DNA from: an uncultured Clostridia bacterium
Lineage (GTDB): Bacteria > Bacillota > Clostridia > Christensenellales > UBA1242
Assembly (NCBI GenBank): GCA_944377765.1
Contig: CALWFX010000031.1
Location: forward strand, 1-38,629
Direction: 5' to 3'
Length of the DNA stretch: 38,629 nucleotides
The notes under the pieces are model-generated. The model saw nothing but the letters and a program-made list of their open reading frames with translations. It did no database searches and was not told the origin of the DNA. This document shows, piece after piece, positions 22,690 through 38,629 of this stretch. The position numbers and the translations under genes are program-made. Every line of letters starts with the position of its first letter. Within the stretch, counting starts at the first letter, position 1.

Positions 22690-22709
22690 TTAAATATTAA
22701 GAGAAAATT

Positions 22710-22985: not shown

Positions 22986-22988
22986 GAT

Positions 22989-24362
22989 ATGGCTGATTAC
23001 AAAATTTTACCTAATAGTATTGAATCTGAACAGGCTGTGCTTGGTTGTATATTGATTGACCAAGAAGCACAAACTGACATTTTGTCGTCTTTAAACAAGG
23101 ATGATTTTTATTCTGAATCTCACAGAAATATTTTTCAAGCAATGCAAACAATTTTTTCAAAAAGCATTCCAGTTGACTTTGTAACACTTACAAATGAACT
23201 TGAAATTGAGAAAAAACTTGAAACTGTGGGCGGAATTGACTACATAACATTTTTGACAAATGTTGTTCCATCAGCAGCGAATTTTAAACATTATTGTGAT
23301 ATTGTTTTATCGAATTCTGTTAGAAGAAATCTAATTAAAAGCGGTCAATCAATTATTGAAAATGCTTTTAATAATGGTGATGATAAAAGTGCCATGCAAT
23401 TTGCTGAAAAAACTATCTTTGATTTGTCTCAAAAACAACAAGATAGCGACCTTGAACTTGTGGGAAAACCGGGTGGCGTTTTAACAGAAGTTTTGAAAGA
23501 ACTAAGTGAAATTGCTGAAAATCAAGGAAAGATGCGTGGTATTCCAACAGGTTATAAAGACTTTGATGCAATCACAAATGGTCTTCAAAAAAGCGATTTG
23601 ATTTTGCTTGCGGCTCGTCCGGGTGTTGGAAAAACTTCCTTTGCCATGAACATTGCAACCAATGTGGCAATTGAACAAAATAAACGAGTGGCAATTTTTG
23701 ACCTTGAAATGAGCAAAGCCCAACTTATGCAAAGAGCACTTGCAAGTGTTGCAAAAGTTAATTTGACTCATGTTCTTCGTGGCACAATGGATCAAGACGA
23801 GTGGAAAAGGCTTTGGACAGCAGAGAAAAAACTTGCTGAAAGTTTAATCTATCTTGATGATTCTTCCATGACCACTCCACTTGATATTATTTCCAAATGT
23901 AGAAAACTTAAAATGACAGAAGGACTTGACCTTATTGTTATTGACTATCTTCAACTTATGAAAGCGAGCAACAAAGGGGAAAGTTCTGGTGGGAACAGAA
24001 CACAGGAAGTTAGTGACATAACAAGAATGCTTAAAGTTGCAGCGAAAGACCTTAATGTTCCAATTATTCTTTTGTCACAATTGTCGCGTATGGTTGAGCA
24101 AAGAGAAGACCATAGGCCAATTCTTTCAGACCTAAGAGAATCAGGTTCAATTGAACAAGATGCTGACATTGTGCTTTTTCTTTATAATCCAGAAAATTAT
24201 AATGATGTTATTTCCAATGAAGAACCGGGAACTGTGCATTTAATTATCGCAAAGCATAGAAGTGGTTCAACTGGAGAAGTTAAACTTAAATGGGTAAAAG
24301 AAATTACAACCTACATGAATATGCCAACAAATCATCAAGAACAAAGAGAAGGAGAAGAATAA
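22989..24362 (+). CDS. dnaB: replicative DNA helicase (DnaB family; DnaC in Bacillus nomenclature)
   Basis: 457 aa. The N-terminus LPNSIESEQAVLGCILID is typical of DnaB. It has Walker A ARPGVGKTSFAMN, Walker B LIVIDYLQLM, SQLSR and a RESGSIEQDAD motif. SD is AAGGAG. Confidence 0.95.
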   Translation: MADYKILPNSIESEQAVLGCILIDQEAQTDILSSLNKDDFYSESHRNIFQAMQTIFSKSIPVDFVTLTNELEIEKKLETVGGIDYITFLTNVVPSAANFKHYCDIVLSNSVRRNLIKSGQSIIENAFNNGDDKSAMQFAEKTIFDLSQKQQDSDLELVGKPGGVLTEVLKELSEIAENQGKMRGIPTGYKDFDAITNGLQKSDLILLAARPGVGKTSFAMNIATNVAIEQNKRVAIFDLEMSKAQLMQRALASVAKVNLTHVLRGTMDQDEWKRLWTAEKKLAESLIYLDDSSMTTPLDIISKCRKLKMTEGLDLIVIDYLQLMKASNKGESSGGNRTQEVSDITRMLKVAAKDLNVPIILLSQLSRMVEQREDHRPILSDLRESGSIEQDADIVLFLYNPENYNDVISNEEPGTVHLIIAKHRSGSTGEVKLKWVKEITTYMNMPTNHQEQREGEE

Positions 24363-25162
24363 TGAAAAAAGGAATTATTATAACATCAATTTTCATTGTG
24401 ATTGCAGTTGTTTTAACAATTGTGTTTATCAATCTTTTCAGAGAAAAAGACACAAGAGATTTATCAAATCAGGTGGTAAATGCAGTGCAAGGTGGATACT
24501 TGGATGACGAAAAGGAAGATGGCGAATTTCAAAAAATAGATGAATATTTCGCAGTGGTTTCAGCAAGTGCAAATGAATATGAAGTTGAAATAAGAAATGT
24601 TCAAAGGTTATATCATTCATATGTCATCATGGCAGATTTTTATAACAACGAAATGGTATTTACTGAATTTAATGATGTTTATAAAGAAAACAAGAAAAAT
24701 GCTATCAATGGCTTGAACGAAGCAAAACAAAAAGCAGAAGAAATGGTAGAATATATTGATAGCAATGCAGAAAAAATATCTGGAAGCACTTATTGGCAAG
24801 CAAGAACATGGGTTGATGTGAGAGATATGGCATTCACTTTTGTTGATGCAAACAATAAGTTGTTCGATGCTTTGCAAAATATATATCAAGGTTGTGTTAC
24901 TTCAAAACTTGCGAATAACGATTTTTCAACATTGGTTTTAAAAACAATTAACAGTGAAGCAAAAAATGTTAGAGAAAATATAAGTGAAGAAATGTTGTCT
25001 ATTGATTGTGTTGTTAACATGACAACCACATACCTACAAAATGGTTACACAAAAATTATGAATTATTTATATGATGCCAGTCTTCAAACAGCAGTTGCTG
25101 ATATCAACAAAAATGGCGAAGAAAGTTCTTATTATCAAAATCTTCTTAATGGAACTTTATAA
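24362..25162 (+). CDS. hypothetical membrane-anchored extracytoplasmic protein (N-terminal TM), distant paralog of the next gene
   Basis: I prefer ATG 24362 (TAATG overlap with the dnaB stop, GAAGGAG 8 nt upstream) to the track's 24290, which overlaps dnaB. The protein starts MKKGIIITSIFIVIAVVLTIVFINLF and continues with about 240 aa that look helical. Confidence 0.7.
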   Translation: MKKGIIITSIFIVIAVVLTIVFINLFREKDTRDLSNQVVNAVQGGYLDDEKEDGEFQKIDEYFAVVSASANEYEVEIRNVQRLYHSYVIMADFYNNEMVFTEFNDVYKENKKNAINGLNEAKQKAEEMVEYIDSNAEKISGSTYWQARTWVDVRDMAFTFVDANNKLFDALQNIYQGCVTSKLANNDFSTLVLKTINSEAKNVRENISEEMLSIDCVVNMTTTYLQNGYTKIMNYLYDASLQTAVADINKNGEESSYYQNLLNGTL

Positions 25163-25176
25163 TTAAAGGAGTGAAT

Positions 25177-26235
25177 ATGAAAAAGACGAAAATTTTATCT
25201 TTGGCACTTATCTTTGTTTGCCTTGCGTGTGTGGTAACTTTTGCTGGCTGTGGCGGACTGTCGGTTAAAACAATTCAAGACAGTATGCAAAGTATGAATG
25301 ATAAATTGGCAGAATATAGCACAATTCTTGTGAAAGATGATGACTTGCACAACACTATCAACTATTATCAAATAAGTTATGGCGAAGATGTTGATGGGCT
25401 TGTCAGCAAGGGCGAAGAAAATTATAAAGACTTGAAAATATACAACTCAATTTTCTCAATTGCAATGAGTTATATTGAAGAAAATCATGTTGTTATAACA
25501 AATTTAACAGATGAAGAAACAAATGATGCAACAAAGGCAAAACTAAATGGTTTAAATGAAAGTATAACAAGTTTTACTTCTGAAATTGGTAATTTTGTTG
25601 AAAAAAGAAATAGTTTAGAAAAATTCTTTGCAGATTATAGCGACACTGTTGGTGAAGCAGATAAACTTGTTAAACTTAGAGAATTTAAAAGAGAGTATGC
25701 AAATTTTGTTAATAAAAGCGTGCTTGTTTCCACAAATTTATCTGATGCAGTGGTTGCAACAGGAGTGCTTGATGATTTAGATAATGTTCTTTTGATAAAA
25801 AATTATGTTTGCAACAAAATTTTAAAAGTATTCAATGAATTCTTTATCAACGAAATGGGAGATTTCAACTGGTCAGAGTCAGATAATAGTGCAACAAAAG
25901 AAGAAATTAACACAATAATTCAAAATCTTGAAACTCAGTTTGGTGTTTTCCAGCAAATTGTCAATTTAAAAGCAGAAAATCTTAAAGAATTAACTGTGGA
26001 AGACTTGAATGCTATTAAGCAAGAAGCAAATAATTTTATGACAGAAGCAGACAATTTCTTTGAAGCATTAAAAGGGCTAGATATAAGCAATTTAGCAACA
26101 AATTATTTAAATGATATTGATGAGTATGTTAAAGATAATTTATACGCAAAAGTTTATCTTGATAAGGTTAGCCAATTTGTGGAAGAAACTTTGCCATCAT
26201 ATTTAATTCAGTTTAATTTAAGTGTAAGTAAATAA
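25177..26235 (+). CDS. hypothetical lipoprotein, distant paralog of the preceding gene
   Basis: I prefer ATG 25177 (AGGAG 5 nt upstream), because the track's GTG 25171 lies inside the SD. MKKTKILSLALIFVCLACVVTFAGCGG carries the lipobox F-A-G-C. The mature part is rich in Asn, Glu and Lys and looks helical. Confidence 0.75.
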   Translation: MKKTKILSLALIFVCLACVVTFAGCGGLSVKTIQDSMQSMNDKLAEYSTILVKDDDLHNTINYYQISYGEDVDGLVSKGEENYKDLKIYNSIFSIAMSYIEENHVVITNLTDEETNDATKAKLNGLNESITSFTSEIGNFVEKRNSLEKFFADYSDTVGEADKLVKLREFKREYANFVNKSVLVSTNLSDAVVATGVLDDLDNVLLIKNYVCNKILKVFNEFFINEMGDFNWSESDNSATKEEINTIIQNLETQFGVFQQIVNLKAENLKELTVEDLNAIKQEANNFMTEADNFFEALKGLDISNLATNYLNDIDEYVKDNLYAKVYLDKVSQFVEETLPSYLIQFNLSVSK

Positions 26236-26245
26236 GGAGAAAAAA

Positions 26246-27877
26246 ATGGATAATCAAAAATTAGCAGAACTTCTTTTCCCAAACAATAAATGGACAGTGG
26301 AAGAAATTGAAGCAAAATATCCAAAAAGAAATTTGAAAGAAGGGGCAGAAGTTACTCGTTTTGCACCAAGTCCAACAGGATATATGCATATCGGTGGCTT
26401 TTTCCAAGCAATAATTGATAAAAACATTGCAAAACGCTCGAATGGTGTTTTCATGCTTAGAATTGAAGATACCGATAAAAAAAGAGAAGTCATTGGAGCA
26501 AGCACAATAATTCTTGAAATTTTAAAAAAATATGACTGTATGCCAGACGAATTTGAAGAAAAAGGTGTTCAAGTGGTTGGAAATTATGGTCCATATTTCC
26601 AAAGCGAAAGAGAAGAGTATTATAAGGCTTATGCAAAAAAACTTGTGAGCGAAGGCAAGGCTTTTCCATGTTTTTGCAGAAAAACAGAAGGACTTAACGA
26701 TGTTAAAGAAAAGCGTGAAAAGATGTTTGCACTTGGCATAACTGAAGATAAAGACCCTTGCAGAAATTTAACAATTGAACAAGTTGAAGAATATTTACAA
26801 GAAAAGAAACCTTTTGCAATAAAGTTAAAAGCCAAAGGAAATGGGCAGAATAAAATTAAAGTGCAAGATGTTTTAAAGGGCGAACTTGAAATTCAAGAAA
26901 ATGGCGAAGATGCTGTTCTTTTAAAAAGTGATTTCATGCCAACTTATGCTTTTGCCCATGCAGTTGATGACCATCTTATGGGCACAACTACTGTTGTTCG
27001 TGGAGAAGAATGGTTGCCATCATATCCACTTCACATTGAAATTCACAAAGCCCTTGGGTTTAAATTGCCAAAATATATTCACACACCACTTATATACAAA
27101 ATTCGTGAAAATGGTGGAAGAACAAAAATATCAAAGCGCATTGATGTTGAAGCGGACATGAGATATTTCTCAAAGGAAGGCTATGAACCACAAGCACTTG
27201 AAGAATATTTAATCAATCTTGCAAACTCTAACTTTGAAATTTGGAGAAAAGAAAACCCTTCTGCTCCACTTGATGACTTTCCATTTGATGGCTTTAACAT
27301 AACTGCAAACACTCCTGTTTTTGATATTGTTAAACTTAATGACATTTCCAAAGAAATGATTGCAAAATATGATGCAGAAACTTGTTATCAAAAACTTCTT
27401 GCCTGGGCGGAAGAGAATTCTTCTGAAAATGTTGATTATCTTAAAAAAGACAAAGATTATGTTATGAAAGTTCTTAACATCGACAGAGAAAAAGAAAAGC
27501 CAAGAAAGGATATATATAAATGGAGCATGGTTTTTGATTATTTTGATTATATGTTCAGCGCTCCAAAAACTTATGAAGTTGATGAAAGTGAAAGAAAGAA
27601 ATTTGAAGAAGTTTTAAGAAATTACAAAAACTATATCGACCTTTCAAACAAAGATATATGGTTTGGTAAAGTTAAAGAGATGGCAGAAAAACTTGGCTAT
27701 GCTGTTGACAATAAGGAATATAAAAAATATCCTGAAAAATTTAAAGGCAATGTAGCAAAAGTTTGTGAGTTTATAAGAGTGGCAATCACAGGCGAAAAGA
27801 ACTCTCCAGACCTTTATGAAATCATGTCAGTTTTAGGTCAAGAAAAAGTTTTGGAAAGAATTTCTTTAATTGTTTAA
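26246..27877 (+). CDS. gltX: glutamate--tRNA ligase (class I aaRS)
   Basis: 543 aa. It has RFAPSPTGYMHIGG (HIGH motif), LRIEDTD, KISKR (KMSKS motif) and a CxC-x27-C putative zinc-binding insertion (PCFCRK...DPCRNL). SD is AAGGAG. Confidence 0.9.
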   Translation: MDNQKLAELLFPNNKWTVEEIEAKYPKRNLKEGAEVTRFAPSPTGYMHIGGFFQAIIDKNIAKRSNGVFMLRIEDTDKKREVIGASTIILEILKKYDCMPDEFEEKGVQVVGNYGPYFQSEREEYYKAYAKKLVSEGKAFPCFCRKTEGLNDVKEKREKMFALGITEDKDPCRNLTIEQVEEYLQEKKPFAIKLKAKGNGQNKIKVQDVLKGELEIQENGEDAVLLKSDFMPTYAFAHAVDDHLMGTTTVVRGEEWLPSYPLHIEIHKALGFKLPKYIHTPLIYKIRENGGRTKISKRIDVEADMRYFSKEGYEPQALEEYLINLANSNFEIWRKENPSAPLDDFPFDGFNITANTPVFDIVKLNDISKEMIAKYDAETCYQKLLAWAEENSSENVDYLKKDKDYVMKVLNIDREKEKPRKDIYKWSMVFDYFDYMFSAPKTYEVDESERKKFEEVLRNYKNYIDLSNKDIWFGKVKEMAEKLGYAVDNKEYKKYPEKFKGNVAKVCEFIRVAITGEKNSPDLYEIMSVLGQEKVLERISLIV

Positions 27878-27886
27878 AAAATTATT

Positions 27887-27930
27887 AAAAATAAAAAATA
27901 GCAAAAAAACATGCTATTTTTTATTTTTTT
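27887..27930 (+). terminator. rho-independent terminator of the dnaB-gltX operon
   Basis: The stem is centred on aaaaatagca (27894-27903) / tgctattttt (27912-27921) and is extendable by A:T pairs. The loop is 8 nt, and a T-rich tail follows. Confidence 0.6.
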
Positions 27931-27957
27931 CTTAATTTTTCATGTATTTTTATATAT

Positions 27958-27988
<31 letters not shown>

Positions 27989-28133
27989 ATTGTAAAAAAT
28001 TCCTTATTTACGAACTATAAATATTTTTAATTATTTTTAAATTTAACAGCAATTTCTTTTATTTTTAAAAATTATTGAAATAAATTCTATTAAATTATTA
28101 AATAATATATATAATACTTTTTCTTTAATTTGT

Positions 28134-28163
28134 TTGCATTTTCATTTTGTTATTTTGTATAAT
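28134..28163 (+). promoter_or_regulatory. candidate sigma-A promoter of giant gene 2
   Basis: TTGCAT at 28134-28139, an 18-nt spacer, then TATAAT at 28158-28163, 41 nt upstream of GTG 28205. The region is so AT-rich that other hexamer pairs are possible. Confidence 0.4.
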
Positions 28164-28204
28164 ATTAATAACTAGAAAGTTTAGGAAAAGTATTGGAGTT
28201 GAAT

Positions 28205-31200
28205 GTGAAAATAAGAAGTTGGTTGTGTTCATTCTTATTAGTGATTTGTGGCATTATGGGTGCCTATACTTTAACTTTGCAAAATTTTGACAATGTAACA
28301 AACGCTGTAAGTGATGACGCAAGTGTTTGGGATGGAAAATATGCTGATGAAGTTGATGATTTTGACTTTGAAGGCGTGGATACGAATAATGACAACACTG
28401 ATGATACTTATTATATTTACACTGCAAAAGGCTTTTCATATTTTGCAAACAGAGTGAAAAGTGATAGTTTTGCAAATAAGGTTATCTATCTTGAAACTGA
28501 TGTCGACTTAGCAGGAAATGAATGGAAACCAATAGGCTCACATAGTGTTGCAAATGAATATTCGCCTTTTTCTGGACAATTTATGGGACAAGGACATACG
28601 ATTTATAATCTTACAATCAAAACAGCGACTAATGATACATATGTGGGTTTATTTGCTGGATTGAGTGGTGCAAAAATTAATGCTCTTAACATTGTTAATG
28701 TGAATATTGATTATGCAAAAGAAAACTCATATGTCGGCGGACTTGCTGGACAAGTTGCTGGTGGGACATCTTTACTATCTGTCAAGGTTACTGGTAATAT
28801 TAAAGCAGTCAATGCAATTTCTGTTGGTGGTATCGCTGGAAATATTCAAGGTTCAACCAACAACAGTCAAATTACTGAGTTAGAAAGTGCCTATATGCCA
28901 ATTGATACATCAAATTTTGGTGAAGTAGCTTATCTTTGTCCATATTTTTCAAAAGTGATTAACAGAGCAAATGTTACTGGTGGCACATATATTGGTGGGC
29001 TTTCTGGTTCAACAAACAATTTGGCAATAATTTCCGAAAGTGCAAACTATGGCACAATACAAAGTGAAAGCACAGCACAAAAACATGTCGGTGGTTTGGT
29101 TGGAAGTCAAAATAACAGCACAAAAAGTTGTTATATTGTAATTGAAAACTCATATAATATGGGAAATATTAAAATTCCAAATTCAGGTCAAAATGCCCTT
29201 ACATATGCGGGCGGTATTATTGGCTATACTTCAACTTCATCTAACCAAAATTATTTTGAACTTAGAAATGTATATAACGCAGGAGATTTTGTTCTTACAG
29301 GTTCAAATTTAACAAATATTAATGCTTCTGGACTTGTTGGCTTTTCTGCAAATCCAACCTATTTTTATAGTCAACAAAATGGTGGGGCATTTTCAACTCA
29401 TAAATACTATATCTATGGTGCTTTTAATATTGGAAATGTTGTAGATGAAAAAGGTGATGCAATTTCTAATAGCGGAGTAACATTTAGAGAAATTATTAAC
29501 TTTTCAACAAATAACACTTCGAGCGTTGAAATTGAAAAGGATACTGTGTTTTATAACGCAGACACAACATCTGGTTCTGCAAGCGATGTGGAGCACGCCA
29601 CCAAAACACACCATTTGGATGGAAAGGTAACAAATATAGACTTTTTAAATAACTCTCTTAAATTTAATGCAAAAAGAGATGAGAATGGTTTATTAACCGA
29701 TGAAAGTGCAACAATATGGTCAATTAACAGAAACTTTAATGAAAGTTTGCCATATTTGTCCTTCATGGATGAATCTGACTTTGAAGATACTGATGGTGAC
29801 AGATATTTTGCTCCTTGGGAAGGAGAAGGAACCATTGATTCTCCATTTTTAATTTATACAGCAGAAGACTTGGCATATGTTGCAGATGCGTATAATTGGC
29901 AATCAAAAGCAAACACCGAAGGATTAACAGATGATGAAGAAATCCTTCAAGAATTGAACGAAAAATTAACTAAAGGTCAAGTTTATTATTTTTCTCTTCA
30001 GAATAATATCAATTTAGCAAGCAAAGCATGGGAGCCTATTGGTATTAGCGGACAATTTATCAATGCGGTTTTTGATGGAAACAATCACTATATTACAGGT
30101 ATAAACTGTTCGTTACAAGTGGAATATGGCGAAGCAGTTGGTCTTTTTGGAACAATCAACAATTCCATTATCAGAAATTTAAAAATTAAAGATTTTAGAT
30201 ATATTGGCACTTCAGAATCTGCCGCTGCAAAAGCAACACTTGTGGGCAGAATGATAAATTCATATATTATCAACTGCTCGGATGAGACAGGCAGAAGTGA
30301 AAATACAATTGGACAAATTGGTATTGAAAATGGAACTGATGAGAATAAAAATTCAACATCTTACATAATTTATGGGAAAAATAATAATGGTGCAGAAAAG
30401 ACAAATATAAAATGTCCAACTGAAACTAAACAAGGTGGTTTAGTTGAAGGCTATCTTGTTGGTATAAATTTAAATGATGGAACATTGTATGACAAATTGG
30501 GCTTTGAAACAGATGCTAATGGAAGAAAGGTTAGGAAATATAGTGTGCATAAAGGTCCAGCAGAGTTTATTATCACAATGGAGTCGGGTGAGAGTGGTTC
30601 TGCTTTCACACTTAAAGATATGTCGAGTTTAGACTCAACATACTTAACAAGCCTTCCAACTGACACAAAAATTCCTGACACGACCACATCTAATGATACA
30701 TCTGACAACACAAGTTATACAGATGCAGAAATCAACGCACTTGTTAAAGAAGGTTTTAAAGTTATTGGCTACTCCTTAGAAAATAAAGAAAGTTCTAAGT
30801 TTGATGAAAAAAATGATTTTAATGTGGGTAGCTCAACTTTGTCAGATATAGCTAGTAGTGACAAAGATACTATAAACAAATTAGTTGAAAATGGTATTTA
30901 TGCCATTTTTGAGAAGGTTAATGATATTGCATACACAATTTACACAAATAGTTATGAAACAGCAGTCCACGCAAATGATGATAGTAATTATAATGGAATT
31001 AATGATGAAGTTACTGAAAATATTAATAATTTAGGTCAATATTTTACCATTTCAGTGCCATATAACACTTTTTGGAGTATTGCTGAATTTCAAACATTGT
31101 TAAATCAAGAACTTGCCACACAAACCAGACAAGGCTATAAAATCGCTGGCGTTTGGGAAAATTTTACAGATACAGAAGGGGTATATGAGTTTTCAGGCAA

Positions 31201-34200
31201 TAATTTATATGAAGGAACAGGTTCAGCGGATGGCTTTTTCTTAAATAAAGAAGAGGACTACTTTATTGAATGGGAAGGAAATGAAAATTATAGCATTCAA
31301 TTAGAAGTTAAGGATGCAAGCAATCCAGAAACAGACAACCCTTATTCAGATAGATTTGACTTTGAAGATGCAATTTTAAGTGTAGAATTTTCTTATAAAA
31401 GCGGAAGTACTGTAAGTGAAAGTAAATCTTTGAATTGTAAAAACTTAATAGATGGAAATCTATTTATTGACAATTATGAAATGACAAGCGTAGACAATAA
31501 GTTGCAATTAAAAGAAAATTCTTCTAGTGGTGCGTTTCCAGATGAAAAAATAGTAATAACTATTACACTTAAAGATGGTTTTCAGTTTAACTATGATGCC
31601 AAAACATATTTTGAAAATAGTGGAATATTAAATTTATCTGACACACAAAATGATGTTGGTAAAAATTATATAAGAAATTATGGTTCGGCAATTGCTAGTG
31701 CGACGCGAACCACTGACGATATTGGGCGTCAAACTTTAACAATCACTCTTGCACAACTTGTTGGCAATGTAAATTTAGATTTACCTATAATGAGAATGTC
31801 TAATAGTTTTCCAATGTATGTTGGAGAAGGTGTTTATTTTGGTCTTGCAGTGCCATCCACAATAGATCAAATTGGAAATTGTCAAATCCTTAATCCTAAA
31901 ACCAATAAATATATTCAAATGATAGATTATAACAGAGATTTTTATGATGTTCTTTTAAACGCAAAAGATTTCAGTTTTGGTATCAATATGTTTGATGATT
32001 ACCTTATCTCAACTGCAAAACAACAAACAGGCAATGTTGAACCTTTTGATGTTTCTGAAATTGATTTAGAGAGTGGATATTATTATCCAAGTGGATCTAA
32101 TGAACCAAGCGGAGAAGGTGTTTGGAAACAACTTATTGTTTATAGTTACACTGACGATGCCTATTATCTTTATGAACTTGCAAAAAGTGTTAATAAAGAC
32201 AATGGGGATGTAATTTATACACAAAACTTATATTTGATTGAACCTTTGGTAGACGAATTAACTTATGATAGCAGTAAATATAAAATTGTTGATAGACTTG
32301 CTAGCATTGAATTTAATCAAAGTATACAAAGTGATAGAGAATTGGGTTCTGCAGGAAGTGCTTTTGGTGATGACAACACAGAAATTGCGGATGGGAGCGC
32401 GGTTGTGGTTAATTATTTTACTAACGCAGAATTCCAACTTGTTTTCTCAACTAACACAACAGAAGCACAAATTAATAACTATCAAGAAGGTAAAGAGGTT
32501 CTTTCTTTCTTATATAGTGAAAATGCGGGTGAATATTTAAATTTATATAAATTAAGTTACAATTTCAGAGATTTAACAGAAGGAGATGATTGTATTCTTA
32601 AAGGGGATGGGAAAGATGAAAATTTAAAATTTTATAATTTTTCTGATATTCAAAATTACCTGTCTTCAAGTGCAAAGAAATTAAAAATCACTCAACAGAA
32701 ATCCACTGCAACTTTCTATATTCGTTTTGTTGATGAAGAAGGTAATGAATTATTAGAAAATAGGCCAACAGTTAAGGCAAGTATAGGTGGGGAAAATGTT
32801 AATAAAGTTGTTGTTGGCGATTCTTTGCAAGTTGATGTTAATAGAATAAGCAAAATTGCCTTTACAATTGAAAACAATAATTATTATCAATGGAAATATA
32901 GGGGTGGCACTTTAAATCTTGACCTTGGAAGAATAGGAAAAACCGAACTAAATAATCAATTATATATTGATTTAAGTGAAGACGTAGGTGCCGCACAAGG
33001 AGTAAAGATACCAGATGGTTTTGCAGAAAATGTAATAAATGGGGCAAGTGGCGTTGGATTTAGTATTTCAGATTTTGGAAAAACTTCAACAGAAAATAAT
33101 TATAATAAATCTTTTGATGTTACATTGGACTTTGATTTGCTCTATGCAGGTGGCGATGGTGTTACTCCGCTTGCATTTAACTATGATTTGACTTTCGTTT
33201 TGAAACAAGTTGACTATAAAATCTCTGTTGAAACAAAATTTAGACAAAATTCAAATGCCTTAGACGAAGATTATTATGACGACCAAGATGCAGCCATAAC
33301 AACAATTTCATTAGATAATGGTGAACAAGGTGGAGAAGTGAATATGACTTCTGATGACTCGTTCACAATAACTTCCAAGGCAAACACCAGTGGTTATTCC
33401 TTTGTTGGTTTTAGAGTTGTAACCAAAAATAGTGAAAATAAAGTTATCAAAAGCACTAAGTTAGATTTGGATGATGCAAATCCGCAAACATTAGAAATGT
33501 CACTTATGGATTTTGTGAATAGTTATCAAAAGGACTATGAAGTTTATTCTGATACTGATGATGAGTATACATACACCATTCAGGCAATTTATCAAAGTGA
33601 ATATGTAAACTTTATGGCAAGTTTTTCAAAGTTTATAATACAAAACTATAATGGCACAGAAGCATTTAGATATAACGACACAATGATTGGCTCATTTGAA
33701 ACCACAAATGGCATTTTAGACAATGGAACTTTCTATTATTATAAGGGGGAAAACGCAAGTTCGTCCACTGACATTTCAAATGGAGAGTTTGTTTACACTT
33801 TGAATTCAAGTTTTAATTCTAAATATTATTTAAAGGGCTTTGCGATTGTTGTTCAGGAGCATTATAGTAGCGAAACTTTTGGAGTGCTAGATAATGGAAA
33901 CACATATAGTTTCAGGTTATTTAATGATGTTGATAGTTCAAGTTTTGAGTTAACAACAAATGAAAATGGTATGCAAACTTTGAAAGTTAAAGGAAGTAGT
34001 GTTGTTAAATATTTCCAAGACTGCATGAGTGACCCTAACTTTATTGCAGATGTAAACTATAAAAATAAAAATTATTATATCATTCCAGTTGTTGAGCAGG
34101 CGACTTTGCTTGTAAAATTAGATTCAGGCTTAAATGGACTTGACACATCTCTCACTGAAAATGCTGGCAAAGGTGTTTATAACACAAATTCAACAAGCGA

Positions 34201-37200
34201 ACTTGATGAAACAACAAACAATGTTATAACTTTTAAGTATTATTACAGCAACAATATTAATATTGATTTTACTGCAAATTTGACCATGGATACAAATCCA
34301 AGTGAAAACAGAAAGTATACGCTTGTAAGCACAGATGTGAACGATATCAGCATAGTTTTAAATGATTATTTTGGTTATAGAATTGGCTATACTCCTGCCC
34401 AAAATGGTGGTTGGGAATATCTTACAAGCAATGGTTCAAAAACTCCAATATTGATGGGGACTTACAGACTGGACAATCTCTTCTTCTCTTCAAATTATCA
34501 ATATAAGCCAGATGCTGATGAACTTAACAAGCCAGAATATTTGAAAGCAGACTATGAGGTTTCAATAAGTAGAAGGTGGCAAGCGAACACATATAATGTT
34601 TACTATTCAAGTGGAGATAGCAGAAATAATAGCAGTATATATGGCAATTCCACTGGAACAGTTGAAAGTATAACTATGGCATATGATGAGCCATTTGAGA
34701 TAAGCAAAAACGAAAATGGCTATGCTATCACTGGCTATGAATTTGTTGGCTGGAACACTCAGGTTGATGGGAATGGGGTTTCATATCAGGCTGGAGAGTC
34801 TGTCATCAACCTAAAAATTGGTGCAGAAAAAAGCACAATAAGTGATTTACTTGTTGAAAATGGAATTCTTGTTGAAGATAAAATTGGAAGAACTTTAACT
34901 TTATATGCTCAATGGCAAGCGAAGGAATATCAAATTAAATTGGTGGCAAATGGTGGCAGTTTTATAGTTGGAGATAACGCCACAGAAATGTATCTTGGAC
35001 CGATAACCTATAACACTCAAATCTCTGGGCTTGCAGATGCGGGCAGTTCTTTGGTAAGAAATGGTTATAAGTTTGATGGTTTCTATGTTTATTATGAAAA
35101 TGCTGAAAAAAACACTGCAAATCTTGTTGAAGATGGCGATTATTTAAGAAGTAGTATAAGGTCATTTAACGATATTCCTTATGTTGAAAATTCTGATGGA
35201 GTGGCTCTTGTTTTGTATGCAACATGGTCTTTTGTTGGAACAACTGAGTTAAATTATTTGACGACAATTGAAAAACAATATATTGGAAGCGGAAAGAATA
35301 TTGAAATTACCTTTGGCGACTTAAATGAAGAAAGCTTTGTTGATGAAACTGGCAATTTAGTTGTTGAAATTTTAGGCGATGAAAACAGTGGATATTATTT
35401 AAATATAACCACTCCAAACTTTACTTATGTTAATACAAAATATTCAATTCTTGGCAATGAACAAGTAGTTGCTAGCGAAAGTAATTTGATTTATATTCCA
35501 AGCAGGGTCGGCAGTTACTATTTCACTATAAACATAGTTTTCGGCGATGCATATACTGCTGACGAAGGCGGAGTGTATAACTTGGGCGACAACATTTATG
35601 AATATAACTTAACTATTAATGTTAATGTTAGTAAAGCGAATGTTGGTTTTGTTGTTGATGAAAGTGTTCGACTTGTGAATATTAAATATTTGGTTTCACA
35701 AATTGAAAATAAGTTAATTTCAGATACTTACAGTAGGTTCGCCACTTTTGACGAAGTTGCAAGTTATATTAAATCTATTGACCTTAGCGAAAGTGTTGAT
35801 GCTAGTTATTTAACGAATGACCAAATATATGAATACTTGTTTATGAAATATTTCAACATGATTAATTCTAACGATGACCAATTTAGAGAATTTAGAAATT
35901 GGGAATATGAAGATTATTATGAATATTATGGCAACACAAACTATTTTGCTGGCGATGAGAATTTGGAAGAAATTACTGACGAAAATGTTAACATTTTAAG
36001 CAGACGTAATCAAAGAAAAAATATCTTACAAAATATCACATTCCTTTTAAGTTATGATTATCAAAAAACAACAAAAGAAGTTACAATTTGTTCAAATACA
36101 GATACATCATACGGATATAATTTAAATCAAGTTAGATTAACTTCTGAAACAGTTGGAGATAGTGTTAATAATGAATTATTAATTTCAAGTATTGTGGTAT
36201 CTTCAAATTACACTTTAACACCTTCCTCAAGTTATAGAGTTAAAGCATATCTAAGCGCGGTGGAAGGAGTTGCATCTAACTATAACTTATATTCTGATGC
36301 AGGTGGCAATTTCATTTATCTTAACGATGCTTATATGCTTGTTCAAGTTTTAAGACTTAAAAACAATGCAAGTATTGAAAAACAAGCAACTTTCTTCAAC
36401 AATACTTTGTCATATGTCAATGTTGAATGGACAAGCGAAGGGCAAAACGAACAGGTTTATATTGACAACTTTAGAGAGTATTATTATCCAATTGATATTG
36501 ATTCAAATTTATACATAAACTTGGTTGTAAACACAAGCAATCCTGGTCAGGAAGATGTTGACACAGTTTTCAATTTCTTCGATAAAACCAATTATTTTGA
36601 CCTTTCAAGTTATCAAATATATTTAAAAGATGAAGAAGGATATTATATAAATTATTCTGCGTATTTCAATTTGATTTTAGATGAATCTTTTGAATTCACA
36701 ATTTATAACATTAAAAACACATCTAAGATTGAACTTCAAACAGCGTTTTTAACAAAAGAAGATGGTTATGTTATTTCAAAAGATTTAGAAGAAAATCTTG
36801 CTAGTGAATTGTTTAATATTACAGGACTTACATATTCAATTAGCGGAGAAACAAAGTCAATTGAAATCACTGAAGATGGAAAATATTTCTCTTCTGAAGA
36901 AGAAGGTAGCATTCTTCTTATGGATATACAGGGCAACAACACAGGTGCTCCAATTTTCTATACTGGCGGAGCGGTTACAAGTGTTAATATTCAAATAACA
37001 AGTAAAAATTTAAGCACTTTTAACAGACTTTATCATGTTGGAAACAGCAAAATTTATGAACTTTCTGACGACCACAATGATAGCGATTTATTTACAATTG
37101 ATTTAACCAATATTGAATTTGTTGAAGGCGAAATTACTGATTTGGTTTACTATGCAAATTACACAGACTTAGTTAGAGTTGATTATGATATGAATTTGCC

Positions 37201-38629
37201 AGTTGAAACAACTCAATATATAAGTTATCTTCAACTTGGTGTTGACACTCAAGATGAAATAAACATGGTAACACAAGCAAACCTTAAACTTTCAAGACTT
37301 GTTTATGTTGAACCAAACAACAATGAAATTGATTATCAAAACATTTTCACTGGTGCTGATGGTGTGTATGTTGGCTATCTTGAAAACAATATTTATGCTC
37401 CTGTTAAACTTAAAGCATATTGGACAATTGACAAAATTTCAGCAAGTTCCAACAATTACACCTATACACAATCTGTTGGCACGCTAAGCGAAGTTTATGC
37501 ATCAAATGCTGGGGTTATAGGCTCTGAACTTATGTATGAACTTTTTGATTATCATTTTGAAATTGTTAAAGATGATGTGGTTATATCTTCTTCAAACGAT
37601 TTTAACACTTTAAAGGTTTCTTTTGAAAATGGCGGAACATTAAAAGATAATGGAACATATAAGGTAAACATTATTGCAACCATTAAAGATGAATTTAGAT
37701 ATGTTTTGGATGAAGAAAGTGAAACATCAGTTGTAACTGATGACATTGAATTTGTTGTTGATTTAAAACCAATTAAAATTATGGGTGCCGAGTTTATTGG
37801 AGAAAACAATATTACTTATGATGGGCTTGACCATAAATTGGAATTCCAAATTGCTTTGTCTTATCAGCAATATGACACTGACCTTGGAGATTATGACACA
37901 GAATCAAAAACTCAAACTTATCAATATGGTCAGTCAACTGTTTTCAACATTCAAATTTATAAGGATGAAGAACTTTTAACTCGTCTTTTAGATGCTGGGA
38001 TTTACAATATCAAAGTTTCTCCAGATTTAAATTATTATGATATAACTGAAATTGAAGAAAATAGTTTACAGTTTGTATATACTATAAACAAATACAATAT
38101 TAATTTGAAAGACTATGAAATTAAGCTTAGCAAACAATTCAACACAAGGGATGAAGCTTTAACTTACAGTTTTAATGTCAATTCAGAAACAATTGTGATC
38201 AACATGACAAGAGATGCAGGCGAAGAAGTTGGTGATTATGGGCTTTATCTTGAAACTTTCACAGCAAGAGATAATGAAAATTATCGTATAACTTTTGATG
38301 ATGTTGTTCTTTATGAAAATGAAATATATCAAAATCTTGAAACAAGAATTGGAACTTTCACAATTTCTGTTTCTGGGAATTTGAGAGTTTACTGGGAAGT
38401 ATCTGAAGGTGTTACAAAGAATTTAGAGTGTGTTTATAATGAAAATGGCTATAAAGCAGTTTTTGAAAATGGTAAGTTAGTGATATCTTCTGGCGACAGC
38501 ACCATAACTTCTCTTAACCTTGTTTTGTATGATGTTGGCACAAATGAAAGAATAACAGACCAAACTCTTTTAAACACAATTTATCCACTTTTGAATGATA
38601 TTAAGGTTTACTTATTCAATTCCAATAGA
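28205..38629 (+). CDS. giant secreted adhesin-like protein, N-terminal 3,475 codons (3' end beyond the window): signal peptide, 2 GLUG/beta-helix blocks, Flg_new repeats, MBG-like domains
   Basis: This ORF is not in the supplied track. Manual translation of the frame starting at 28205 gives no stop through base 38629 (10,425 nt, exactly 3,475 codons). An in-frame TAA at 28169-28171 bounds it upstream. The start is GTG, with GGAG at 28195-28198. The N-terminus MKIRSWLCSFLLVICGIMGAYTLTLQNFDNVTNA|VSDD looks like a Sec signal peptide. TTG codons at 28193 and 28199 are alternative starts. Confidence 0.88.
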   Translation, partial: MKIRSWLCSFLLVICGIMGAYTLTLQNFDNVTNAVSDDASVWDGKYADEVDDFDFEGVDTNNDNTDDTYYIYTAKGFSYFANRVKSDSFANKVIYLETDVDLAGNEWKPIGSHSVANEYSPFSGQFMGQGHTIYNLTIKTATNDTYVGLFAGLSGAKINALNIVNVNIDYAKENSYVGGLAGQVAGGTSLLSVKVTGNIKAVNAISVGGIAGNIQGSTNNSQITELESAYMPIDTSNFGEVAYLCPYFSKVINRANVTGGTYIGGLSGSTNNLAIISESANYGTIQSESTAQKHVGGLVGSQNNSTKSCYIVIENSYNMGNIKIPNSGQNALTYAGGIIGYTSTSSNQNYFELRNVYNAGDFVLTGSNLTNINASGLVGFSANPTYFYSQQNGGAFSTHKYYIYGAFNIGNVVDEKGDAISNSGVTFREIINFSTNNTSSVEIEKDTVFYNADTTSGSASDVEHATKTHHLDGKVTNIDFLNNSLKFNAKRDENGLLTDESATIWSINRNFNESLPYLSFMDESDFEDTDGDRYFAPWEGEGTIDSPFLIYTAEDLAYVADAYNWQSKANTEGLTDDEEILQELNEKLTKGQVYYFSLQNNINLASKAWEPIGISGQFINAVFDGNNHYITGINCSLQVEYGEAVGLFGTINNSIIRNLKIKDFRYIGTSESAAAKATLVGRMINSYIINCSDETGRSENTIGQIGIENGTDENKNSTSYIIYGKNNNGAEKTNIKCPTETKQGGLVEGYLVGINLNDGTLYDKLGFETDANGRKVRKYSVHKGPAEFIITMESGESGSAFTLKDMSSLDSTYLTSLPTDTKIPDTTTSNDTSDNTSYTDAEINALVKEGFKVIGYSLENKESSKFDEKNDFNVGSSTLSDIASSDKDTINKLVENGIYAIFEKVNDIAYTIYTNSYETAVHANDDSNYNGINDEVTENINNLGQYFTISVPYNTFWSIAEFQTLLNQELATQTRQGYKIAGVWENFTDTEGVYEFSGNNLYEGTGSADGFFLNKEEDYFIEWEGNENYSIQLEVKDASNPETDNPYSDRFDFEDAILSVEFSYKSGSTVSESKSLNCKNLIDGNLFIDNYEMTSVDNKLQLKENSSSGAFPDEKIVITITLKDGFQFNYDAKTYFENSGILNLSDTQNDVGKNYIRNYGSAIASATRTTDDIGRQTLTITLAQLVGNVNLDLPIMRMSNSFPMYVGEGVYFGLAVPSTIDQIGNCQILNPKTNKYIQMIDYNRDFYDVLLNAKDFSFGINMFDDYLISTAKQQTGNVEPFDVSEIDLESGYYYPSGSNEPSGEGVWKQLIVYSYTDDAYYLYELAKSVNKDNGDVIYTQNLYLIEPLVDELTYDSSKYKIVDRLASIEFNQSIQSDRELGSAGSAFGDDNTEIADGSAVVVNYFTNAEFQLVFSTNTTEAQINNYQEGKEVLSFLYSENAGEYLNLYKLSYNFRDLTEGDDCILKGDGKDENLKFYNFSDIQNYLSSSAKKLKITQQKSTATFYIRFVDEEGNELLENRPTVKASIGGENVNKVVVGDSLQVDVNRISKIAFTIENNNYYQWKYRGGTLNLDLGRIGKTELNNQLYIDLSEDVGAAQGVKIPDGFAENVINGASGVGFSISDFGKTSTENNYNKSFDVTLDFDLLYAGGDGVTPLAFNYDLTFVLKQVDYKISVETKFRQNSNALDEDYYDDQDAAITTISLDNGEQGGEVNMTSDDSFTITSKANTSGYSFVGFRVVTKNSENKVIKSTKLDLDDANPQTLEMSLMDFVNSYQKDYEVYSDTDDEYTYTIQAIYQSEYVNFMASFSKFIIQNYNGTEAFRYNDTMIGSFETTNGILDNGTFYYYKGENASSSTDISNGEFVYTLNSSFNSKYYLKGFAIVVQEHYSSETFGVLDNGNTYSFRLFNDVDSSSFELTTNENGMQTLKVKGSSVVKYFQDCMSDPNFIADVNYKNKNYYIIPVVEQATLLVKLDSGLNGLDTSLTENAGKGVYNTNSTSELDETTNNVITFKYYYSNNINIDFTANLTMDTNPSENRKYTLVSTDVNDISIVLNDYFGYRIGYTPAQNGGWEYLTSNGSKTPILMGTYRLDNLFFSSNYQYKPDADELNKPEYLKADYEVSISRRWQANTYNVYYSSGDSRNNSSIYGNSTGTVESITMAYDEPFEISKNENGYAITGYEFVGWNTQVDGNGVSYQAGESVINLKIGAEKSTISDLLVENGILVEDKIGRTLTLYAQWQAKEYQIKLVANGGSFIVGDNATEMYLGPITYNTQISGLADAGSSLVRNGYKFDGFYVYYENAEKNTANLVEDGDYLRSSIRSFNDIPYVENSDGVALVLYATWSFVGTTELNYLTTIEKQYIGSGKNIEITFGDLNEESFVDETGNLVVEILGDENSGYYLNITTPNFTYVNTKYSILGNEQVVASESNLIYIPSRVGSYYFTINIVFGDAYTADEGGVYNLGDNIYEYNLTINVNVSKANVGFVVDESVRLVNIKYLVSQIENKLISDTYSRFATFDEVASYIKSIDLSESVDASYLTNDQIYEYLFMKYFNMINSNDDQFREFRNWEYEDYYEYYGNTNYFAGDENLEEITDENVNILSRRNQRKNILQNITFLLSYDYQKTTKEVTICSNTDTSYGYNLNQVRLTSETVGDSVNNELLISSIVVSSNYTLTPSSSYRVKAYLSAVEGVASNYNLYSDAGGNFIYLNDAYMLVQVLRLKNNASIEKQATFFNNTLSYVNVEWTSEGQNEQVYIDNFREYYYPIDIDSNLYINLVVNTSNPGQEDVDTVFNFFDKTNYFDLSSYQIYLKDEEGYYINYSAYFNLILDESFEFTIYNIKNTSKIELQTAFLTKEDGYVISKDLEENLASELFNITGLTYSISGETKSIEITEDGKYFSSEEEGSILLMDIQGNNTGAPIFYTGGAVTSVNIQITSKNLSTFNRLYHVGNSKIYELSDDHNDSDLFTIDLTNIEFVEGEITDLVYYANYTDLVRVDYDMNLPVETTQYISYLQLGVDTQDEINMVTQANLKLSRLVYVEPNNNEIDYQNIFTGADGVYVGYLENNIYAPVKLKAYWTIDKISASSNNYTYTQSVGTLSEVYASNAGVIGSELMYELFDYHFEIVKDDVVISSSNDFNTLKVSFENGGTLKDNGTYKVNIIATIKDEFRYVLDEESETSVVTDDIEFVVDLKPIKIMGAEFIGENNITYDGLDHKLEFQIALSYQQYDTDLGDYDTESKTQTYQYGQSTVFNIQIYKDEELLTRLLDAGIYNIKVSPDLNYYDITEIEENSLQFVYTINKYNINLKDYEIKLSKQFNTRDEALTYSFNVNSETIVINMTRDAGEEVGDYGLYLETFTARDNENYRITFDDVVLYENEIYQNLETRIGTFTISVSGNLRVYWEVSEGVTKNLECVYNENGYKAVFENGKLVISSGDSTITSLNLVLYDVGTNERITDQTLLNTIYPLLNDIKVYLFNSNR
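28409..29520 (+). other. GLUG-motif beta-helix block 1 of giant protein 2
   Basis: YYIYTAKGFSYFANRV...DLAGNEWKPIG...PFSGQFMGQGHTIYNLTI...YVGLFAGLSGAKINALNIVNVNI is followed by repeated GG-x-x-G rungs: YVGGLAGQV, SVGGIAGNI, YIGGLSGST, HVGGLVGSQ, YAGGIIGYT, ASGLVGFS. Confidence 0.6.
29816..30290 (+). other. second beta-helix entry module of giant protein 2
   Basis: WEGEGTIDSPFLIYTAEDLAYVA...NLASKAWEPIGISGQFINAVFDGNNHYITGINCS...AVGLFGTINNSIIRNLKIKDF repeats the same GxGTxxxPFxI / W.PIG / F.G.FDGN.H.I.G / GLFG...I.NL pattern as block 1 and as the C-terminus of giant protein 1. Confidence 0.5.
34577..35233 (+). repeat. two tandem Listeria-Bacteroides repeat (Flg_new / InlB B-repeat type) domains
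   Basis: The first unit reads WQANTYNVYYSSGD...MAYDEPFEISKNENGYAITGYEFVGWNTQVDGNGVSYQAGESV...LTLYAQWQAKEYQIKLVANGG. The second reads ...ITYNTQISGLADAGSSLVRNGYKFDGFYVY...LVLYATWSF. Both show the hallmark W.A..Y.V.Y...G ... GY.F.GW....DG ... L.LYA.W pattern. Weaker partial copies lie near 30740-30920 (KEGFKVIGYSL) and 31130-31300 (RQGYKIAGVWENF). Confidence 0.7.
37766..38375 (+). other. two MBG-like (YGX/YDG-type) domains near the window end
   Basis: The first unit reads KPIKIMGAEFIGENNITYDGLDH...LLDAGIYNIKVSPDLNYYDI. The second reads YNINLKDYEIKLSKQFNTRDEALTYSF...TRDAGEEVGDYGLYLETFTARDNENYRITF. They fit the MBG pattern (k.YDG..., aG.Y.i, ...NY.i.f). Recognised by eye only. Confidence 0.5.

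Follow-up and report, generated by a model that had tools for sequence, protein, structure and literature searches.

A giant gene truncated at a contig end in an uncultured, probable UBA1242 bacterium and its probable product, a membrane-anchored surface protein with N-terminal GLUG-type beta-helix domains

Staphylococcal Ebh/Embp proteins are anchored by a C-terminal membrane-spanning segment instead of an LPXTG motif. Together with the 7,651-residue adhesin of Mobiluncus mulieris they are giant Gram-positive surface proteins (PMC9302970 for Ebh/Embp and PMC10619420 for the Mobiluncus adhesin). These proteins are described as consisting of dozens of near-identical tandem repeats, with 51 Ig-like domains and FIVAR/GA-type repeats (PMC9302970, PMC10619420). 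The locus studied here belongs to a different setting. The relatives of its TypA were uncultured gut Clostridia, including Candidatus Caccovivens, which is GTDB UBA11517 of the family UBA1242 (PMC8035907). On this one marker protein, the host is probably a low-GC gut Clostridium of UBA1242 within Christensenellales. The gut lineage UBA1242 is uncultured and widespread; its genomes are mostly <1 Mbp, it is predicted to depend on a partner, and its lifestyle as symbiont, parasite or scavenger is undecided (PMC12306168). It showed a negative association with the body weight of chickens (PMC13155120). Surface adhesins are mentioned neither in PMC12306168 nor in PMC13155120. The protein described below is of an ordinary kind, yet one undescribed in the UBA1242 lineage.

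As shown by direct translation, the forward-strand frame from GTG 28205 to base 38629 comprised 3,475 codons with zero stops and stayed open right up to the end of the window, i.e. the whole 38,629-nt stretch of DNA that was analysed. This frame, named ORF B, represents the 5' part only of its gene. The nearest in-frame stop on its 5' side was the TAA at 28169-28171, and a Shine-Dalgarno-like GGAG was read directly at 28195-28198 of the same strand, 6 nt upstream of the GTG. With a stop probability of 0.085 per codon, taken from the base composition (GC ~32%), 3,475 consecutive codons without a stop would arise by chance at P ~1e-133. The other five frames of 28205-38629 contained 183-502 stops and were open for at most 100 codons in a row. 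GC by codon position in ORF B was 0.41/0.33/0.22, a pattern usual for coding sequence. ORF B was free of in-frame stops of every type, TGA included, so nothing points to an alternative genetic code or codon reassignment. A previous sequence-only reading had reported the open frame of 3,475 codons, the TAA just upstream and the GGAG, and all three were recovered on recomputation. It had also held that the frame was hidden as an edge-open one. This was correct: after 27877 the ORF listing contained no ORF >=150 aa, and ORF B was missing because the listing, by its own description, leaves out ORFs extending past the source.

An ENA metagenome assembly (ERZ28614025) contained the same gene, called partial with 3,463 residues and running off its contig. 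That contig was 100% identical to window positions 22527-37877, and its end lay within 34 nt of the break point of the window contig. The window had no DNA repeat exceeding 43 nt and no tandem repeats of note. Repeats were considered as the cause of the assembly break and rejected, as neither the window nor the full orthologue described below contained DNA or protein repeats. An exact 32-nt tag near the window end gave 0 matches in JGI metagenome contigs. The C-terminal 500 aa or 700 aa of the window protein retrieved no relatives from GTDB genomes and a protein database, the window protein itself included. ORF B is a real giant gene that is truncated by the edge of the window.

The complete size of the gene was estimated from orthologues. 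A contig walk in the closest relative gave one ORF of 6,363 aa, and protein B was colinear with its residues 1-3416 at 46.5% identity. In 18 species with start and stop on one contig, the two were 5,981-6,462 codons apart and in frame in all 18; for 17 of these the length is the start-to-stop distance, with 3.3-6.8 kb of the mid-gene unread. Among the C-terminal loci, 33/35 stayed open as far as the retrieved locus reached, a distance of ~3,660 codons where the full 10 kb upstream was present. The frame was open in every orthologue examined. The earlier statement that the true protein exceeds 3,475 aa agrees with these data, which put its length at about 6,000-6,450 aa; both this length and the anchor of B are extrapolated from orthologues 25-48% identical over the N-terminal region compared. 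Neither of two protein databases returned a B orthologue longer than 1,500 aa, so the giant orthologues are not retrievable that way.

The dN/dS of the orthologues was 0.11-0.16; for two orthologue pairs split into 300-codon segments, it was 0.05-0.25 in each segment. Compared with the closest species, B had 46.5% identity whereas TypA, GltX and DnaB had 97%, 92% and 91%. By these sequence comparisons, gene B is fast-evolving under purifying selection, as would be expected for an exposed surface protein. Its position was downstream of gltX in 33/58 related loci, and housekeeping genes flanked it on both sides. The genes 3' of the C-terminus of the orthologues appeared UppP-like, P-type-ATPase-like and HolB-like by inspection of their N-terminal sequences. 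A scan of the spacer between gltX and B for promoters and terminators gave nothing beyond shuffle expectation. The lone terminator-like hairpin was located inside the signal-peptide coding region; it was discarded as probably a chance match.

The start at 28205 was supported by the orthologues, which have ATG at the homologous codon and an N-terminus in which MK[IV][KR]S precedes a run of hydrophobic residues. Residues 1-34 of B (28205-28306, forward strand) form a signal-peptide-like segment according to hydropathy, an AF2 helix and conservation in orthologues. It has a K/R n-region and a hydrophobic core at residues 5-26, which a hydropathy scan identified as the sole hydrophobic segment in the 3,475 aa of B. 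AF2 placed a helix at residues 2-26. The N-terminal pattern was kept in 13 orthologues, with A34 invariant. A Sec-type signal peptide had been claimed for this region. The hydrophobic signal-like N-terminus is present; by inspection, cleavage after A34, between TNA and VS, is possible. The segment could also be an uncleaved anchor that tethers both ends of the protein.

The N-terminal region of B was related to GLUG proteins. AF2, Foldseek and an orthologue profile indicated a GLUG-type parallel beta-helix domain at residues ~65-385 (28397-29359, forward strand), over which the AF2 pLDDT was mostly 85-97. The best Foldseek match of this model was 3n6z (E 5e-7, TM 0.61), followed by the IgA1 proteases 6xja/6xjb. 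When the orthologue profile of B was compared with PDB, the IgA1 proteases 6xjb/6xja/7jgj were matched with E 1.4e-19 and 3n6z with E 1e-15. Homologues of the domain found by phmmer were GLUG / M26_N proteins with E down to 5e-27, and the consensus common to B and GLUG proteins was DIDLxGxxWxPIG...FxGxFDGxGHTI...GGLVG. Some distant GLUG homologues carry SLH (PF00395), only outside the region that they have in common with B. A second, shorter GLUG-type domain was assigned to residues ~536-701 (29810-30307, forward strand) by hhalign against the GLUG-protein alignment A1 (probability 98%, E 3e-14), and it showed many invariant columns across 14 orthologues.

The window copy of B did not reach the gathering thresholds of PF07581/PF05342. 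In a Pfam scan of 460-aa pieces, Glug scored 18.9 bits against a cut-off of 20.5 and Peptidase_M26_N 22.3 against 27.7. At E <=0.01, Glug was matched in 7/14 orthologues (best E 1.9e-10) and M26_N in 3/14. The identity of the GLUG beta-helix in B, as predicted from sequence profiles and the structure model, is solid despite the sub-threshold Pfam scores. The HExxH motif was absent from B, from its full-length orthologue and from the second giant protein of the locus (giant A), and Peptidase_M26_C of Pfam had no match in B or the orthologue. The zinc-metalloprotease catalytic domain of M26 IgA1-specific enzymes was accordingly not seen in B or the orthologue.

Further modules were found in the distal half of ORF B, all on the forward strand. 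A Flg_new-like (Listeria-Bacteroides repeat) unit at residues 2128-2237 (34586-34915) scored 23.1 bits with Pfam Flg_new against a cut-off of 27, and E 2.7e-18 with a local iterative HMM. A second such unit at residues 2240-2341 (34922-35227) was detected by the local iterative HMM with E 4.6e-12. An MBG_2-like unit at residues 3299-3366 (38099-38302) scored 21.4 bits with Pfam MBG_2 against 25. In the window copy, neither Flg_new (PF09479/PF18998) nor PF18676/PF17883/PF18657 reached its gathering threshold. A local HMM tied the MBG-like unit of B to three units of the 6,363-aa orthologue, and a Pfam YDG match above threshold overlaps one of the three. Above threshold, that orthologue had YDG (34.1 vs 25 bits), which falls in the section beyond the end of the window, and Flg_new_2 (25.1 vs 23.6 bits). 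The window holds two Flg_new-like units and one MBG-like unit; the full orthologue holds five and three.

Between the modules lie two unannotated cores, also on the forward strand. Core I (residues ~702-2127, 30308-34585) had no family match and no internal repeats. Core II (residues ~2342-3298, 35228-38098) had no credible match to families or PDB sequences, and by windowed identity no other part of B was as well conserved with the closest orthologue (50-65% identity). The whole B protein searched against Pfam, NCBIfam and PDB sequences gave no credible match for the cores and nothing with E<=0.01. Pieces of the cores gave isolated sub-threshold matches at chance level, such as Peptidase_C69 and Big_5 in core II. 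An exhaustive HMMER search of residues 901-2100 against 1.84 billion representatives returned only 2 short fragment matches, and a single-sequence AF2 model of residues 2761-3200 had a pLDDT of 30.6 and was unusable. We considered whether all of B might consist of very divergent Flg_new/MBG copies. This idea was dropped because the iterative HMMs, even at relaxed inclusion, did not extend into the core. By BLASTP (E 1e-3) and at the DNA level (E 1e-5), internal repeats were absent from B and the 6,363-aa orthologue. GLUG rungs, Flg_new repeats and MBG units had been named in the sequence-only reading. They were right in kind, as judged by profiles, hhalign and the structure model, and the 'coherent domain content' was overstated, since recognisable domains span only ~23% of the residues of B; ~77% match nothing and contain no internal repeats. 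The Pfam hmmscan that it recommended gave nothing with the whole protein and sub-threshold matches only with 460-aa pieces.

The C-terminus of B was deduced from relatives. A strongly hydrophobic helix with at least four K/R residues was located at the C-terminus in 34/35 species, and four database fragments and the 6,363-aa orthologue likewise ended in a transmembrane (TM) helix with a basic tail. The tail that follows the hydrophobic helix in the orthologues is of the type KKRKKRRE. The anchor missing from B is probably a C-terminal TM helix with a basic tail, as predicted from the orthologue sequences. LP.[TSA]G was absent throughout the 6,363-aa orthologue and from the aligned C-terminal ends of the four fragments. 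SLH and cell-wall-binding families of Pfam/NCBIfam had no match in B or in the C-terminal half of the orthologue. The anchor had been expected beyond the window, and the orthologues place it there; among the types then listed, a TM segment was found in the orthologues, and LPXTG and SLH/cell-wall-binding domains were not. The gene, its size, its domains, its conserved position and the conservation of its anchor in relatives are all established by these results.

We consider it probable that ORF B is the 5' ~55% of a single ~19-kb chromosomal gene for a giant membrane-anchored surface protein, whose role is most likely adhesive. The signal-like N-terminal segment would route B through the Sec pathway. 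By analogy with the orthologues, the C-terminal hydrophobic helix and its basic tail would stop transfer and hold B in the cytoplasmic membrane. As the anchor is C-terminal, the N-terminus would be the far end of the molecule. The tip would thus carry the two GLUG-type beta-helix domains, as at the N-terminus of M26 IgA1 proteases, without a protease domain. From tip to anchor, B may form a long non-repetitive stalk, probably beta-rich, with scattered Flg_new and MBG/YDG modules. We infer from this arrangement that B, if exported, cleaved and oriented in this way, would contact or adhere to a host surface, mucus, a glycan or a partner cell.

Other roles were weighed against adhesion. B and giant A might instead form a coat, spacer or spore-associated layer needed for cell integrity. 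This would fit the place of B among housekeeping genes, kept across at least 33 species, the fact that purifying selection has kept it in a lineage whose genomes are reported to be small, the location of giant A directly 3' of the sporulation genes yabP and yabQ, and the small membrane-anchored proteins of unassigned function beside both giants. However, no SLH, cell-wall-binding, known S-layer or spore-coat family was matched, the layout, one TM anchor and a beta-helix at the distal tip, is typical of a fibre or adhesin, and 46.5% identity beside 91-97% in the neighbours is more in keeping with an exposed protein driven by interactions than with a lattice that assembles itself. We regard such a structural layer as rather unlikely. 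It is unlikely, too, that B is an enzyme on a stalk, whose catalytic distal beta-helix, acting as a protease, as a lyase or hydrolase of polysaccharides or in cell-wall degradation, would be presented to a substrate or to a prey or partner cell. The N-terminal model is indeed a right-handed parallel beta-helix, lower-ranked Foldseek matches included pectate lyases, pectin methylesterases and phage tailspikes, and IgA1 proteases are the closest sequence relatives with solved structures. In addition, giant genes are tied to cell-wall degradation by predatory bacteria in a preprint (bioRxiv 10.1101/2023.11.21.568195). Yet the lyase and tailspike matches were weak (E >= 0.09, probability <= 0.35, TM <= 0.45), the similarity to IgA1 proteases was limited to the non-catalytic N-terminal domain (profile positions 116-331), and, besides the missing HExxH in B, the full-length orthologue and giant A, no peptidase, lyase or glycosidase family was found at the Pfam threshold.

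That B is giant, secreted and fast-evolving and comes from a dense gut community would also suit delivery, by way of a long filament, of a contact-dependent toxin or polymorphic effector. Polymorphic toxins, however, have variable C-terminal tips and adjacent immunity genes, whereas the most uniformly conserved feature of B is its C-terminal TM anchor with a basic tail, and the genes behind it are of housekeeping type (UppP-like, P-type-ATPase-like, HolB-like). Matches to toxin, Rhs, LXG, TPS or haemagglutinin-repeat families were absent, which makes this role very improbable. Chimeric assembly, pseudogene decay or a frame open by chance could be suspected from the contig ending inside the gene and the second contig ending within 34 nt of the same point. 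The in-frame stop, frameshift or chimera that had been named as grounds for rejecting the gene were not encountered: the frame is free of stops at a chance P of ~1e-133, the second contig is identical and the full-length orthologue is colinear. Frames were open in all orthologues examined, start and stop were in frame in 18/18 species, and dN/dS was well <1, so that, as far as sequence data alone can tell, an artefact is practically dismissed.

The adhesive surface protein that we favour may not act by itself. Giant A is a neighbouring lipoprotein of 3,573 aa located directly downstream of yabP and yabQ. It had no similarity to B by BLASTP; profile comparison alone linked its C-terminus to the GLUG domain. 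Small membrane-anchored proteins of unassigned function adjoin both giants. It is conceivable, though rather doubtful, that A and B constitute an attachment apparatus of genome-reduced, putatively partner-dependent UBA1242 Clostridia. The GLUG-type domain of A would then lie at its own membrane-distal end, and A and B would be oppositely anchored non-repetitive fibres taking roughly 2-4% of a 0.7-1.6 Mbp genome. If so, the cell would use the fibres to bind a host or partner cell and gain metabolites, and the pair would be the Firmicute equivalent of giant surface proteins in episymbiotic lineages.

For gene discovery, the locus indicates that an 'empty' 10-kb contig end may conceal half of the largest gene of an organism, and that length limits in gene or ORF listings and in protein databases conceal a whole family. 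With a length of ~19 kb, a constant location in at least 33 species and evidence of purifying selection, the gene is a concrete candidate for the means by which UBA1242 cells contact a host or partner. Its N-terminal GLUG domains offer a handle for binding studies or labelling antigens.

Compared with known systems, residues ~65-385 of B form the same predicted parallel beta-helix as in GLUG proteins and the N-domain of M26 IgA1 proteases (PF07581, PF05342; 3n6z, 6xja, 6xjb, 7jgj). Unlike the M26 IgA1 metalloproteases, B has no M26 catalytic domain or HExxH. The GLUG homologues listed are 566-1,500 aa, mostly 1,000-1,500 aa, in length, whereas the domain of B tips a protein of ~6,200 aa. The module types of Firmicute surface proteins with Flg_new (InlB B-repeat, PF09479/PF18998) and MBG/YDG (PF18676/PF18657) recur in B, in which, unlike in those proteins, they are sparse and very divergent. 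B and its orthologue gave no self-matches and so differ from tandem-repeat giant adhesins of the SiiE, Ebh or Bap-like type. Unlike Ebh/Embp and the Mobiluncus mulieris adhesin, they contain no internal repeats and have no sequence similarity to either. Like these, B is a multi-thousand-residue, putatively Sec-exported surface fibre and among the largest proteins of its organism. The giant genes of Omnitrophota, which are metagenome-derived and partner-dependent or predatory bacteria (bioRxiv 10.1101/2023.11.21.568195), belong to another phylum; B is far smaller, shows no detected similarity to them and has no degradative domains. Like those genes, B was obscured by assembly fragmentation and edge effects and comes from an uncultured lineage with proposed dependence on a partner.

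Translation of window positions 28205–38629 (+) gave 3,475 codons without a stop, and the frame of this giant ORF, B, was still open at the last base of the window. The nearest in-frame stop on the 5' side was TAA at 28169–28171, and an SD-like GGAG was located at 28195–28198 (+), 6 nt before the GTG start, so that the stop-free run, the upstream stop and the ribosome-binding signal of the sequence-only reading were all recovered on recomputation. An open run of this length has a chance of ~1e-133 given the composition of the region. The other five frames of the stretch contained 183–502 stops and open runs of at most 100 codons, and GC by codon position in B was 0.41/0.33/0.22. The ORF listing shows no ORF of ≥150 aa beyond 27877; as had been supposed, the 10.4 kb look empty there because ORFs running off the source are left out. 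An ENA metagenome contig 100% identical to window 22527–37877 carries B as a called partial gene of 3,463 residues.

The genes around B were ordinary chromosomal genes (ABC transporter, pyruvate formate-lyase and its activase, CvpA, pseudouridine synthase, YabP, YabQ, TypA/BipA, DnaB and GltX). TypA relatives at 82–97% identity came from 80 uncultured gut Clostridia MAGs, and a homologue of the B N-terminus followed gltX in 33 of the 58 related loci extending more than 1.5 kb past that gene. In the closest species, walking a 119-kb contig revealed one single ORF of 6,363 aa, whose residues 1–3416 were colinear with residues 1–3473 of B at 46.5% identity. A scan for the conserved C-terminal module identified 35 further species loci; 33 of these ORFs met no stop before the 5' limit of the fetched sequence, a stretch of ~3,660 codons where the full 10 kb upstream could be fetched. 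Start and stop lay on one contig in 18 species, 5,981–6,462 codons apart (median ~6,220) and in the same frame in every case (chance ~3e-9); the gene was covered completely in the closest species, with 3.3–6.8 kb mid-gene unread in the others. These comparisons indicate that B is a real conserved gene with only about half of its length inside the window, and bear out the earlier expectation of a protein longer than 3,475 aa. Protein searches returned no sequence longer than 1,500 aa and missed even B's own giant protein; giant orthologues clearly exist in GTDB MAGs, and a result of 'no homologues' from such searches of giants should be read with care.

In distant relatives (GltX only ~50–55% identical), no B-type N-terminus was found in the ~4.5 kb that follow gltX; many of these relatives still have a homologue of A, the other giant ORF of the window, 5' of typA. 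The B locus may be younger than A, or may have moved or diverged past detection.

Two contigs of the same strain end at most 34 nt apart inside B, the window at 38629 and ENA ERZ28614025 scaffold_5602 at ~38595. Assembly-breaking repeats are absent from both the window and the full orthologue, and in many relatives the whole gene was assembled on contigs of at least 100 kb. Co-existing strain variants downstream of the break are a plausible candidate cause. In a short ENA contig with a C-terminal fragment, homology to the orthologue began only at nt 638 (L084, region nt 1–800 examined); 5' of this point the frame had many stops and an unrelated minus-strand gene was called, so that this part of the contig looks like the product of a chimeric join or a rearrangement.

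Over the first ~1,450 codons of B, dN/dS was 0.16 and 0.11 in the two orthologue pairs close enough for measurement, and it ranged from 0.05 to 0.25 in every 300-codon window of these pairs. The flanking TypA and DnaB gave 0.012–0.056. Against the closest relative B was 46.5% identical, compared with 97% for TypA, 92% for GltX and 91% for DnaB. Judged from these values, B is under constraint, yet it is the fastest-evolving gene of the region compared.

GLUG, Flg_new and MBG units had been proposed for B. Pfam and NCBIfam returned nothing for the whole protein, and in 460-aa pieces the matches stayed below the cut-offs: Peptidase_M26_N, 22.3 bits against 27.7; Glug, 18.9 against 20.5; Flg_new, 23.1 against 27; MBG_2, 21.4 against 25. 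Peptidase_C69, Big_5 and a few other isolated sub-threshold matches look like chance. The GLUG identity of the N-terminal domain is nevertheless firm. The N-terminal 860 aa matched GLUG and M26_N proteins (E down to 5e-27), Pfam Glug was found at E ≤ 0.01 in 7 of 14 orthologues (best E 1.9e-10), and a profile of the 14 matched the N-terminal domain of solved IgA1 proteases (E 1.4e-19). An AlphaFold2 model from 36 sequences was confident for residues ~65–385; its first matches were 3n6z, a 'putative IgA1 protease' of Bacteroides ovatus (E 5e-7, TM 0.61), and streptococcal IgA1 proteases, followed by generic parallel beta-helices. HExxH occurs nowhere in B, which is therefore not a protease of the IgA1 protease (M26) family. 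A second, shorter GLUG-type domain spans residues 536–701 (hhalign 98%, E 3e-14). With local iterative HMMs, the window's part of B contained exactly two Flg_new-like units (residues 2128–2237 and 2240–2341) and one MBG-like unit (3299–3366), and the full orthologue contained five and three; YDG (34.1 bits) and Flg_new_2 (25.1 bits) exceeded the Pfam thresholds in the orthologue. These domains cover ~23% of B's 3,475 residues. For the remaining sequence, Pfam, NCBIfam and PDB sequences yielded nothing credible, and a search of 1.84 billion representative proteins gave just two fragment matches. No internal repeats were detected in B at the DNA or protein level; a repeat-free build is unusual among giant surface proteins.

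The only hydrophobic segment in the window's part of B is residues 5–26, preceded by K and R, and A34 was invariant in 14 sequences. The segment looks like the proposed signal peptide, and a signal-peptidase site after A34 is possible. The orthologue ends in ...NYWYIYIIIAIVLLLIILLIILLLV-NKKRKKRREELNVK. This type of ending, also present in four database fragments and in 34 of 35 species, consists in order of one GLUG-type first rung (FWTPIG...FNGxFxF), WYxY, a ~22-residue helix and a K/R-rich tail. The orthologue lacks LPxTG, and neither B nor the C-terminal half of the orthologue matched an SLH or cell-wall-binding domain; among the anchors suggested earlier, the C-terminal transmembrane helix is the probable one. 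B would be exported via Sec and held by a C-terminal stop-transfer anchor like that of its orthologues, with the basic tail inside the cytoplasm. With such an anchor, the GLUG beta-helix at the N-terminus would form the membrane-distal end of the molecule. We consider this model, orthologue-based at the C-terminus, very probably correct.

The N-terminus of A (window 8989–19710, +; 3,573 aa) is of the lipoprotein type (...LIGTFLSAC), and the last ~350 aa of A matched the GLUG-domain profile (hhalign 92%, E 6e-7). A appears to be anchored N-terminally and B at its C-terminus; anchored at opposite termini, both would carry a GLUG-type domain at the membrane-distal end. BLASTP detected no similarity between A and B. 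A was syntenic in most related loci, with 62% identity in the closest species and 22–39% elsewhere. Directly 3' of A, a 286-aa ORF (19747–20607, +; 59% identical in the closest species; no Pfam match) resembles a miniature B in its type I layout: its N-terminus carries a signal-like segment, and its C-terminal TM helix precedes KFKK. Between dnaB and gltX, a pair of conserved genes (24290–25162 and 25171–26235, +), likewise with no Pfam match, showed 56% and 63% identity to their counterparts in the closest species and diverge much faster than the adjoining housekeeping genes; a TM segment is present at the N-terminus of one, and the other bears a lipobox-like FAGC.

One TypA relative was labelled Candidatus Caccovivens, which is GTDB genus UBA11517 of family UBA1242, order Christensenellales (PMC8035907). 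Judged from this one marker protein and from record titles, the window's host probably belongs to UBA1242. UBA1242 genomes are mostly below 1 Mbp (range 671–1,611 kbp) and are missing standard transporters as well as many steps of biosynthesis and glycolysis; despite this reduction they unexpectedly keep sporulation genes, and they are proposed to belong to obligate symbionts or parasites (PMC12306168). The sporulation genes yabP (41.1 bits) and yabQ (35.1 bits), just upstream of A (7944–8590, +), agree with this retention. Giant proteins or adhesins are not mentioned in PMC12306168 or in another study devoted to UBA1242. Pyruvate formate-lyase (669.8 bits) and its radical-SAM activating enzyme (2690–5666, +) fit a strictly fermentative metabolism.

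In this model, B would combine a membrane anchor with a very long stalk and, at the far end, a beta-helix of the binding type. This layout, with fast divergence under purifying selection, is as expected for a contact-mediating surface fibre, and we hold the chances of an adhesive role to be evenly balanced. The beta-helix could instead be an enzyme on a stalk, but its structural likeness to lyases and tailspikes is weak and catalytic motifs are absent. A place in a structural envelope or spore-associated layer would sit poorly with a divergence quicker than a lattice would predict, and no SLH or S-layer family was found. A contact-dependent toxin would be expected to vary at its C-terminal tip, but here this end is conserved and would be the anchor. 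Sequence data, as far as they reach, exclude an artefact.

The earlier interpretation of B was essentially right. What is noteworthy about the B family is that it is undescribed, non-repetitive and fixed in chromosomal position, and that a lineage with reportedly very small genomes has kept B alongside another giant, A. B itself belongs, in truncated form, to a familiar class, that of giant anchored surface proteins.
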